DNA of 36,534 nucleotides from Candidatus Thalassarchaeum betae (GTDB taxonomy: Archaea > Thermoplasmatota > Poseidoniia > Poseidoniales > Thalassarchaeaceae). A program made the translations under genes and the position numbers. Within the stretch, counting starts at the first letter, position 1; every line of letters begins with the position of its first letter. The notes beneath the pieces were generated by a model, which saw only the letters and a program-made list of their open reading frames with translations, had not been told where the DNA came from and searched no databases. Location of the stretch: the NCBI GenBank assembly GCA_003193925.1, contig PSPG01000014.1, positions 1-36,534 on the forward strand, given 5' to 3'. Below are positions 394-2,070 of this stretch, in pieces.

Positions 394-2070
394 TCATCCC
401 GGCAAATCTCCAACCATTGAGAATGTCAACCAAGTGAGCGCGAACAACGCCGCGAGCGCGACGAACATCACGATCGTGGCCGTGGGCGCCTTGACAGCCC
501 CCGGCTCGGCGGGTTCCCATCGTACAGTGGGCAGGTTGGCAGTCACCTCGCCGACTCCTGCCTCCTCGCCAGACCGCAAGGTGCGGACGAGCCCGTACAC
601 GAACAGCAGCAGAACGATGGCCATGATGATTCCACCGAGGCCGACGAGCGCATTCAGAAGGGGAATCGAAGCGTGCAAGTCGTACTCCGGCGCCAGCGTC
701 CGCCGAGCCGAGCCGAGGTATCCGGCGGCGATGCCCGAGACGCCGAACAGGTAAACTCCGACGGTGAGCGCCCAGGGCAGTTGAGCCATCAGTTTCGGGT
801 TCCACAGCTGCCTGCCGTAGAGGATGGGGATGACGTACATCAGCAGCCCGATGAAGGTGAGCGTGATAGTGCCCACGGTGAAGAAGTGGAAGTAGGCCGG
901 GATTGCGAAGGTGTCCGACAGCAGAGCGGCGAATTTCACCTGTATGAGGATGTTTGCAAGCACTCCACCGGCGGCGGCACAGACGCAGGCGGCCGCAATC
1001 GAGGAGAAGGCGGGGTTGCCCCACGGCAGGTCGCGCATCCAGGCGAACAGCCCCTGTCTTCCTTCGCTGACCCGCGCACTCGCTTCGAGGGAGACCAGGA
1101 TGATGACGAACACCATGATCGTCGGGATGCTGATGAACATGGCGAGTGTCGAGGCGACCGTCTTCATCAGCGCGGAGATGGTCGGGTCGAGGAACATGTG
1201 GTAGAGGAAGGTCGGGGGGAGGACGACTAGGTAGAAGGAAAAGAAGACCTTCGACAATCGATCGCTGAAGATGCTCTTCACACCGGTAGTGACCTCCGCC
1301 AGAGCATACCAGACCAACACCGTGGACAGCAGAGGCAAGTAGTGCATGTTGTGGAACATCACGTGATAGGCAATCATGTAGTCGAAGTCCATCGGCCCAC
1401 CGCCTTCCAAGGCCCACAAGGCAGTCCTGCCGAACACATTCAGCGCGGCGAATGAGGTGACGGTGAGCAGGGCCGCCCAGAGCGTCGCGGCGAAGGTGAT
1501 GGAGGACCAGCTCTCGACCTTGCCGTCCAACTTCGCTTTGATGGGAGTCGCGATGCAAGGAATCGAGACGCACAACAGACCGAGTCCGAGCAGGACGTAG
1601 CCGACGTAGAACCAGTCAGCACCCGGCATCCCATCAGACAGCGGGGCGAGTCCGGTGTAGGTGATGACCGCTCCCATCCAAGGTGCGATCTGGTCGATCA
1701 GGAAACCGGCTGACATCAGGCCGAACCCTACCCACGCCAAGTTGCGCCAGACCAGCTCGTCGACACCATCGGTGTAGACGAGCACGAACACCATCACCAC
1801 AGCAACCTGCACGAAGTAGAGCCAGTAGTAGAATACCGTGGTTCCATGCAGAGTGAGAATCGTGTAGGCTAGGGTTGACTCGAGGGAGAGGAAACCCCCC
1901 TTGACCAACACGAGCAGCAAAGCGTAGAGGACTCCAAGCCCAAGAGTGAAGATGCTGACGAGCACGAAAGCCTTCAGCAACCGCCTGTCCCCCTCTGCCA
2001 GACTTGACAGCGAAGCCTCGAACCGCCCCGAAGCATGCTCAATGGTGGATTCGTCACCTTGTTCCGCCAT
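394..2070 (-). CDS. Heme-copper oxidase superfamily subunit I (ba3/B-family-like), atypical active site
   Basis: 558 aa, ~13 hydrophobic helices; TLH75G (low-spin heme His), H240NMHY244, Y290H291MFLDP, LPWGNP, DTFAIPAY393FH395, R456R457; lies next to a CuA subunit II. Confidence 0.9.
   Translation of the reverse strand: MAEQGDESTIEHASGRFEASLSSLAEGDRRLLKAFVLVSIFTLGLGVLYALLLVLVKGGFLSLESTLAYTILTLHGTTVFYYWLYFVQVAVVMVFVLVYTDGVDELVWRNLAWVGFGLMSAGFLIDQIAPWMGAVITYTGLAPLSDGMPGADWFYVGYVLLGLGLLCVSIPCIATPIKAKLDGKVESWSSITFAATLWAALLTVTSFAALNVFGRTALWALEGGGPMDFDYMIAYHVMFHNMHYLPLLSTVLVWYALAEVTTGVKSIFSDRLSKVFFSFYLVVLPPTFLYHMFLDPTISALMKTVASTLAMFISIPTIMVFVIILVSLEASARVSEGRQGLFAWMRDLPWGNPAFSSIAAACVCAAAGGVLANILIQVKFAALLSDTFAIPAYFHFFTVGTITLTFIGLLMYVIPILYGRQLWNPKLMAQLPWALTVGVYLFGVSGIAAGYLGSARRTLAPEYDLHASIPLLNALVGLGGIIMAIVLLLFVYGLVRTLRSGEEAGVGEVTANLPTVRWEPAEPGAVKAPTATIVMFVALAALFALTWLTFSMVGDLPG

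Follow-up and report, generated by a model that had tools for sequence, protein, structure and literature searches.

To our knowledge, the proximal ligand of the catalytic haem is a histidine in all haem-copper oxidoreductases (HCOs) that have been studied biochemically. Here, we consider the subunit I gene of a divergent B-type HCO from the archaeon Candidatus Thalassarchaeum betae, which lies on a stretch of 36,534 nucleotides (GenBank assembly GCA_003193925.1, contig PSPG01000014.1, positions 1 to 36,534; hereafter, the window), and in particular the segment of its helix VI that carries the histidines H236, H240 and H243 next to the tyrosine Y244. In the text of their survey, Murali et al. 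2024 (PMC11214002) treat the active-site histidines of HCOs as conserved except in the nitric oxide reductase (NOR) gNOR, the first HCO with an active-site histidine replaced. Dataset S4 of the same survey names a ‘B8-subfamily’ and lists under it, among others, Marky_1501 of Marinithermus hydrothermalis, one protein each from Azospirillum, Thioalkalivibrio and Euryarchaeota, and the gene Ga0209109_100278174 (PMC11214002). This is the clade to which the window’s subunit I belongs: Marky_1501 (P0040 among our search matches) bears the motif discussed below, with FHNTHY, PYH and YFH at the three sites, and Ga0209109_100278174 lies on the contig of our locus L101, which carries FHIYHYIP. We found no comment on the B8 ligand changes in the text of PMC11214002, although its SI Appendix and Datasets S2 and S3 may say more, and no literature description of a tyrosine at the proximal or CuB position of an HCO. 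What we describe is a catalogued B-type subfamily with an unprecedented set of ligands.

Subunit I matches Pfam COX1 (PF00115) with 125.4 bits (cut-off 34.8), and its best solved relatives are the chains of Thermus thermophilus cytochrome ba3 (phmmer, E ~1e-24), a member of the B1-subfamily composed of subunits I, II and IIa. In the alignment to ba3, the residues of helix VI pair as H236 with W229, F239 with G232, H240 with the CuB ligand H233, N241 with P234, H243 with V236, and Y244 with the cross-link tyrosine Y237. Y290-H291 in helix VII falls on the CuB pair H282-H283, a tyrosine thereby replacing the first of two adjacent CuB histidines, while in helix X, Y393 occupies the place of H384, the proximal ligand of haem a3, and H395 that of H386, the second ligand of haem b. 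H75, equivalent to ba3 H72, completes the low-spin haem ligands. A second alignment (MAFFT, with 23 canonical or NOR-like representatives) sets FHNMHYLPL under GHP.VYFWL and leaves the register unchanged. Of the six histidines canonical for the superfamily, four are present (H75, H395, H240 and H291), and the whole clade is alike in this respect.

Much of the ba3 architecture has nevertheless been kept, including a CuA-containing subunit II, both low-spin haem ligands, the first CuB histidine followed four residues later by the tyrosine typical of the B family, Y133 (here Y138, invariant in the family alignment), the pair of haem-propionate arginines, an LPW.NPAF segment and part of the K-pathway. 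The residues of the ba3-type K-pathway are Y237, Y248, S309, T312 and Y244 according to Dataset S1 of PMC11214002; Y237, Y248 and S309 have counterparts in Y244, Y255 (128/129 family members) and T317 (127/129), whereas T312 and ba3 Y244 are replaced by V320 and V251. Setting the clade apart from ba3 are the exchanges of H384 and H282 for Tyr, G232 for Phe, P234 for Asn, V236 for His and, usually, W229 for His, together with D372 to Ala, H376 to Ser and T312 to Val. The additional subunit differs as well, having two helices and ~65–77 residues, compared to the 34 residues of IIa.

The clade can also be compared with NOR-type enzymes. Like gNOR, it derives from the B type and has an oxygen donor in place of one active-site histidine out of three (Asp in gNOR, Tyr here), but gNOR is described in the text of PMC11214002 as devoid of the helix-VI tyrosine and of CuA ligands, both of which the clade retains; beyond that, the clade exchanges the proximal haem ligand and gains a histidine in helix VI. 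In the FeB sites of cNOR, qNOR and nNOR (PMC11214002), helix VI provides the non-haem metal with a fourth ligand one turn beyond the first histidine, a glutamate at i+4 there and possibly a histidine at i+3 here. These enzymes keep three histidines plus the proximal one and lack the tyrosine, whereas in the clade both one of the three histidines and the proximal histidine have become tyrosines.

How consistent are these exchanges across relatives? A word-indexed search returned 170 relatives at E ≤ 1e-5, and all of the best 120 of these 170 carry F-H-x-x-H-Y, Y-H and Y-x-H at the three sites. When 1.84 billion cluster representatives were searched with phmmer, 301 matched at E ≤ 0.001 and the 41 of at least 480 residues were aligned. 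The helix-VI motif was present in 18 of these 41 rows, all 18 of which have Y290-H291 and 16 of which also show Y393-x-H395; P0132 and P0136, which do not, resemble the query only up to about residue 340–370 and probably stem from frameshifted or chimeric contigs. None of the 23 aligned rows without the motif has a tyrosine at position 290 or 393. In an alignment of 129 members with 25–82% identity, H75, F239, H240, H243, Y244, P246, Y290, H291, Y393, H395 and R456 are identical throughout, and N241 is kept in 123. The family thus possesses exactly five invariant histidines, namely the two low-spin haem ligands plus H240, H243 and H291. To these we added 77 metagenome loci of the deepest subclades, which were fetched by the helix-VI pattern so that the count for that motif is not independent; in their 73 sufficiently long sequences, P..YH occurs in 72 (the single miss contains a masked X) and P[GA]Y.H in all 73. 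Among ~185,000 species-representative genomes, 261 stretches encode a relative; the best 80 of the 261 were fetched, and the neighbourhood counts below refer to 81 genome loci.

An unrooted tree was built from 37 full-length representatives, all of them drawn from matches to the window’s subunit I. In it, all 16 motif-bearing rows fall on one branch (Shimodaira–Hasegawa-like approximate likelihood ratio test, SH-aLRT, 100), separate from the 11 rows of canonical B type, the 6 NOR-like rows and the 4 others. The sequences that stand closest outside the clade in the 1.84-billion-protein search are B-type and NOR-like, placing the clade within the B/NOR radiation. At the level of populations, contigs of four RNA libraries contain 16 subunit I variants, 13 of them synonymous, and one of the three replacements, A455P, restores a near-invariant family residue, P455. 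The reading frame is open and its 99%-identity cluster counts 77 member sequences. Because the substitutions are shared without exception throughout a deep clade that spans bacteria and archaea, we regard the locus as a case of remodelling, not decay, and are highly confident that the site is functional and belongs to a separate clade. The original prediction, made from the bare sequence, had likewise argued for remodelling, and its description of the motif, in which the Trp and Val positions turned to His while Gly and Pro were lost, is borne out by both alignments, as are the companion tyrosines at 290 and 393, which are present in all 129 aligned members. Conservation of this extent greatly exceeds what chance would produce. 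Support for remodelling over decay comes from the invariant ligand changes, the retained CuA and low-spin haem ligands, and the preponderance of synonymous variants.

The same prediction also proposed that H236, H240 and H243, as a triad on one helix face, could replace the lost CuB ligand or build a multi-copper or non-haem-iron site. Position 236 is His in 102 of the 129 aligned members, with Ser (11), Ala (8), Gly (3), Gln (2), Asn (2) or Met (1) in the remainder, the cultured Marinithermus protein being among those with Gly; across a FastTree phylogeny of the members, at least eight changes between His and non-His are needed. Of the 77 deep-subclade metagenome loci, 72 have His. A covariation search in the 129-member alignment found no histidine that compensates for the loss of H236, and the columns that track this loss are lineage markers only. 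Varying without such compensation, H236 cannot be a ligand that a multi-copper site would require. We consider it quite likely that it is a dispensable non-ligand, and read it as an accessory, second-sphere residue that varies between lineages. Judged from the alignment, the conserved unit is H240-x2-H243-Y244 together with Y290 and Y393, rather than the triad. For H243, we lean slightly towards a direct role as a metal ligand: invariant H240, H243 and H291 equal in number the histidines that a canonical CuB needs, which makes it plausible that H243 substitutes in the CuB ligand set for the histidine lost at position 290. Replacement of the missing CuB ligand is therefore partly supported, for H243, on the grounds of homology and of three invariant non-haem histidines, and not for H236; a conserved His triad is not supported. 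The covariation proposed as a check is uninformative: H243, Y290 and Y393 always occur together, yet they do so on a single branch, and their co-occurrence thus counts as one evolutionary event.

An AlphaFold2 (AF2) model of subunit I was obtained at high confidence (predicted local distance difference test, pLDDT, 93.3; predicted template modelling score, pTM, 0.93), with helix VI spanning residues 231–262, and its top Foldseek matches are again ba3 chains (TM-score 0.74–0.79, probability 1.00), in agreement with the 12-helix fold that characterises subunit I in the superfamily. In a complex model with the small membrane protein encoded next to subunit I (see below), that protein contacts residues 229–230, 233–234 and 237–238 of helix VI and 274–275, 278, 281–282, 285–286 and 288–289 of helix VII. 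Since helical periodicity places them opposite these contacts, residues 236, 240 and 243/244 of helix VI and 280, 287 and 290/291 of helix VII are predicted to face inward. The counterparts of F239 and H243 in ba3, G232 and V236, presumably line the innermost part of the O2 channel. Both ba3 positions were mutated to probe ligand access, according to the titles of PDB entries, and a study on ba3 (PMC3141039) describes W229, the equivalent of H236, as flanking a water above the haem beside H283, the equivalent of H291. On helix VII, Y280, T287 and Y290 are invariant or nearly so; they would form a polar ladder along the inner helix face that could deliver protons.

Does the enzyme still bind a second haem? 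The pair of propionate-binding arginines is kept, with R457 present in 126 of 129 members alongside the invariant R456. In 21 of the 77 deep-subclade loci (listed in the table), with only 45 of the 77 extending at least 1 kb downstream, a haem o synthase gene (TIGR01473, 231.8 bits, cut-off 210.3) follows on the same strand, and the host genome encodes both haem o and haem a synthases. In known oxidases, it is the catalytic site that houses the farnesylated haem. Given the linkage to haem o synthase in the deep subclades and the capacity of the host to make haem o and haem a, a second, farnesylated high-spin haem is expected to be still bound. That Y393 ligates a haem is a reading we somewhat favour from its position in the alignment.

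Together, this leads us to an explanation in which we place reasonable confidence, namely that the motif contributes the part of helix VI to a re-ligated binuclear centre in a functional and distinct B-type clade, the B8-subfamily. The path of electrons from CuA in subunit II to the low-spin haem (H75/H395) is retained. In the catalytic site, four changes have been fixed together (the proximal His to Tyr, Y393; the first CuB His of helix VII to Tyr, Y290; and, among the residues of helix VI that line the channel, Gly to Phe, F239, and Val to His, H243), while H240, Y244 and H291 remain. H243 would restore a set of three histidines (H240, H243, H291) for a non-haem metal, Y393 would ligate the farnesylated high-spin haem, and Y290 and Y244 might serve as phenol or phenolate partners, with the bulky F239 and H243 possibly narrowing the end of the hydrophobic gas channel. 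We conclude that the core function is that of a terminal, CuA-fed reductase, and rank first the reduction of O2 or of partly reduced oxygen species with a cupredoxin or a cytochrome as donor. In the beta- and alphaproteobacterial branch, the enzyme has been recruited to periplasmic copper-stress loci.

Several observations weigh against this explanation. Ligand roles for H243 and Y393 are drawn from homology and counting. Linkage to haem o synthase is confined to the deep subclades, being absent from the window’s locus and from the 81 genome loci. The partners of the haem a3 A-propionate in ba3 are not kept, D372 being replaced by A381 (127/129) and H376 by S385 (124/129); the high-spin haem pocket is consequently altered and could in principle be empty. 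A Tyr-ligated haem is expected to have so low a potential that CuA and haem b would not readily reduce it, which makes O2 binding at Fe(II) in the ordinary way less likely. Among 300 other sampled genomes of the order, 10 of them from the same genus, none contains a match at E ≤ 1e-40. Finally, none of the seven loci of the archaeal branch has copper-efflux neighbours, and the copper role suggested for Proteobacteria is therefore not transferable to the window’s gene. A more daring version of the re-ligated centre, which we put forward tentatively and rate as quite a long shot, would accommodate the low potential. Here, a farnesylated haem with tyrosinate (Y393) as its ligand would face a metal bound to H240, H243 and H291, Y244 and Y290 lying close by, and the enzyme would constitute a new catalytic type within the superfamily that works as a respiratory reductase of peroxide or another pre-activated oxidant. 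As such a haem would be hard to reduce to Fe(II) and would instead stabilise Fe(IV)=O, the complex would run the oxidase cycle through its second, high-valent half only, using electrons from CuA and possibly in an electrogenic fashion via the inward-facing Y280-T287-Y290 ladder. In Proteobacteria, this could provide a sink for copper-driven oxidative stress.

Which other explanations should be considered? If the locus encoded a decaying or non-catalytic paralogue of the canonical A-type oxidase that the host genome carries on another contig (COX1 at 480 bits), the loss of two of the six canonical histidines would come as no surprise, but the substituted residues are invariant in 129 homologues from two domains of life and, with CuA, the gene cassette and the frame intact, mostly synonymous variants and a 77-member cluster, this reading is scarcely credible. 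A one-face site made of all three helix-VI histidines, in which a multi-copper or non-haem-iron centre replaces CuB and haem a3, gains some appeal from their i, i+4, i+7 spacing, from the prevalence of His at position 236, from the position of ba3 W229, lining the cavity by the H291 equivalent, and from the potential of Tyr290 and Tyr393 to act as phenolate ligands, as in non-haem iron sites. We judge it very unlikely, however, since the 27 members with other residues at 236 show no compensating histidine, and since both the haem o synthase linkage and the invariant R456 argue that the second haem is still bound. Catalases combine a proximal tyrosine with distal His and Asn residues, and a haem with His/Tyr ligation is found in MauG. 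Instead of binding the non-haem metal, H243 could by analogy sit on the distal side of a Tyr-ligated haem, serving as its sixth ligand or, with N241, as an acid-base catalyst in the reduction of H2O2 or another oxidant. This would agree with the strict conservation of Y393 and H243, with N241 in the main clade, and with F239/H243 at the G232/V236 positions if the site is no longer supplied through a hydrophobic gas channel. N241 is lost in the deep subclades, though, where I, V or M takes its place; the CuB/Tyr core of H240, Y244 and H291 is kept despite being unneeded in a catalase-like site; and no peroxide-related neighbours were seen among the annotated loci. The likeness to catalase and MauG, whose folds are unrelated, is one of working rather than membership, with Y393 assigned from its sequence position alone, and overall we deem this option possible but unlikely.

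The genomic surroundings of certain relatives raise the alternative of a copper-stress enzyme, that is, a membrane cuprous oxidase that passes electrons from periplasmic Cu(I) via a His/Met-rich CuA subunit to the remodelled site. Copper- or metal-efflux-type neighbours, by which we mean genes for P-type ATPases with a heavy-metal-binding domain, CusA- or CusB-like, DUF411/CopG, DUF2933, LTXXQ and ICMT-like proteins, lie within 5 kb in 36 of the 81 genome loci; a CusS-type sensor kinase adjoins the Thioalkalivibrio locus; and the linkers of subunit II are variably rich in His, Met and Asp, to an extreme degree in Thioalkalivibrio denitrificans (locus L069). By our reading, however, the association is limited to one proteobacterial branch, with 35 of 50 loci from Betaproteobacteria and Azospirillum as opposed to 1 of 24 marine alpha- and gammaproteobacterial loci and none of the seven in the archaeal branch that includes the window. 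The window’s own locus is devoid of copper-efflux genes, deep-subclade loci resemble ordinary oxidase operons, and copper enzymes often sit by copper-handling genes for the sake of their assembly. The copper link exists, though in a particular lineage only, and a cuprous oxidase is quite unlikely as a general account of the clade. Reduction of nitric oxide, as performed by the B-family offshoots eNOR, sNOR, gNOR and nNOR, would fit an enzyme derived from the B type whose active site is altered and many of whose hosts are denitrifiers (Thioalkalivibrio denitrificans and Azospirillum), and several altered sites support this reaction according to the text of PMC11214002. The same text, though, defines those families by loss of the helix-VI tyrosine, and Dataset S4 places the clade under a B subfamily rather than a NOR (PMC11214002). 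The active-site tyrosine that is absent from HCO-type NO reductases (eNOR, sNOR, gNOR, nNOR, bNOR) is universal here, the clade is separate from NOR-like rows in our tree, and no nir, nor or nos neighbours were seen among the annotated loci, which makes this reading highly improbable.

The re-ligated B-type centre would give the clade interest beyond its host. It amounts to a natural experiment on what the haem-copper scaffold is capable of. Should the tyrosines prove to be ligands, this would matter for understanding how haem potentials are tuned and high-valent intermediates stabilised in the superfamily, and would raise the question whether metagenome annotation may safely equate the presence of the tyrosine with an O2 reductase. 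With cultured hosts in Azospirillum, Marinithermus and Thioalkalivibrio, the chemistry is directly testable. Databases currently name clade genes ‘cbb3-type cytochrome c oxidase subunit I’ and thereby assign them to the wrong family and probably to the wrong function, no NCBIfam model covers subunit I, subunit II or the small subunit (matches are far below cut-off or absent), and the ESM Atlas returned generic COX1 clusters only.

Subunit I is part of a cassette of four genes, the coordinates of which are collected in the table. Neighbour clustering among the 81 loci identified subunit II and the small subunit as the only general partners. Subunit II, encoded directly upstream of subunit I and found in 80 of 81 loci, has a complete set of CuA ligands (H126, C163, C167, H171 and M174; kept in 79–80 of 80 aligned neighbours), another B-family trait. 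Its linker is short in the window, with His and Met residues, while its Thioalkalivibrio denitrificans homologue (L069, 6863-7807) bears a long periplasmic His/Met/Asp/Gly-repeat linker with 11.9% His that looks like a metal-binding sponge ahead of the CuA domain.

The small protein has a homologous open reading frame (ORF) directly downstream of subunit I in 64 of 81 loci, and aligning 32 of its sequences shows no variation at W19, M33, W40 and F47. Modelled in complex with subunit I, it attains an ipSAE of 0.88 as compared to 0.02 for the best control; 116 of 157 solved complexes but only 2 of 215 mismatched pairs reach this value, counts that are approximate here as the model was run with our own alignments and two riding haems. 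Runs share at least 90% of contacts, the pLDDT of the small subunit is 74, and the near-invariant K274 contacts its near-invariant D8. The model supports, without demonstrating, binding to subunit I, and we consider the ORF a probable third subunit: a family-specific protein with two transmembrane helices that is predicted to pack on the outer faces of helices V–VII. In one RNA-library contig (run X16), a G>A exchange at window position 174 turns codon 69 of this ORF into a stop, which would trim only the acidic C-terminal tail beyond the two helices.

The fourth gene encodes a cupredoxin-like protein that matches pieces of amicyanin and plastocyanin as well as PGF_CTERM (25.4 bits, cut-off 24.5) in NCBIfam; it is a possible electron donor. 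The four-gene order is shared with another Thalassarchaeaceae locus (L003, 75% identical), whose cupredoxin homologue lies at 6864-7415 (+). In both proteins, the Cys-x2-His loop of the amicyanin C-terminal part precedes the strand with the usual N-terminal His, which belongs to the plastocyanin N-terminal part, and this arrangement points to a blue-copper domain that is circularly permuted or made of two pieces. The L003 homologue has not kept the second His of the loop. Elsewhere in the window (26011-28287, +), a 758-residue protein contains a cytochrome c assembly domain of the CcsA/ResC type, hinting that the archaeon makes c-type cytochromes, which could also feed oxidases.

Features of the window and of related loci that bear on the remodelled oxidase
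Feature	Position or loci	Strand	Basis
Subunit I, divergent B-type haem-copper oxidase, 558 residues	394..2070	-	Pfam COX1, ba3 match, clade membership
Helix VI motif Y235-H236-V-M-F239-H240-N241-M-H243-Y244	1339..1368	-	ORF translation
Y290-H291, helix VII	1198..1203	-	Aligned to ba3 H282-H283; each 129/129
Y393-F-H395, helix X	886..894	-	Aligned to ba3 H384-F-H386; Y393 and H395 each 129/129
H75, first axial ligand of low-spin haem	1846..1848	-	Aligned to ba3 H72; 129/129
Subunit II, membrane-anchored cupredoxin, 181 residues	2087..2632	-	Pfam Cupredoxin_1; NCBIfam CoxB below cut-off
Small two-helix membrane protein, 77 residues, without known family	145..378	-	Directly downstream of subunit I
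Cupredoxin-like protein with PGF-CTERM archaeal surface anchor	2655..3215	-	Pfam Copper-bind; NCBIfam
Haem o synthase directly downstream	L085-L092, L094, L095, L099, L107, L110, L114, L120, L121, L127, L145, L150, L153, L154		

Regarding its distribution, the gene is sporadic within its order. A recent transfer from bacteria was nonetheless rejected: the window and five loci, six rows of Thermoplasmatota type, share a branch of seven rows (SH-aLRT 100) with L045, which is titled ‘uncultured bacterium’, and the GC content of the operon is only slightly low (0.595–0.603 vs ~0.63). All four genes are covered in part, at ≥95% identity, by contigs of four RNA libraries from as many studies, which is weak evidence for expression as RNA libraries can carry DNA, and the uncovered stretches, including 1299-1465 at the motif, are uninformative. 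A plasmid collection yielded three unannotated matches on Azospirillum megaplasmids and no usable context.

The neighbourhoods of relatives vary by lineage. Seven marine gammaproteobacterial loci group together, and in L027, the one of them that is annotated, the operon stands beside an NrfD/FeS/multihaem-cytochrome module, a setting that fits a respiratory terminal enzyme. Deep-subclade loci feature thioredoxin/DsbD genes in addition to haem o synthase. A membrane methyltransferase of the ICMT/PEMT type is encoded near the cassette in 15 of 81 genome loci (for example, L070 4037-4714) and 9 of 77 metagenome loci (for example, L096 1868-2488).

A few observations concern other genes. In a Thermoplasmata relative (L025, 6485-8776), a 763-residue homologue of aIF5B/IF-2 has a weak match to an intein-splicing domain; the window’s copy (8054-9841, 595 residues) is without one. 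Two 366-residue ORFs of the window, at 4898-5998 (-) and 4932-6032 (+), overlap almost fully and neither has a Pfam match; the plus-strand product is rich in Glu and Arg and coiled-coil-like. A 73-residue ORF at 18210-18431 (-) matches Pfam Hc1, a family resembling chlamydial histone H1, at 53 bits.

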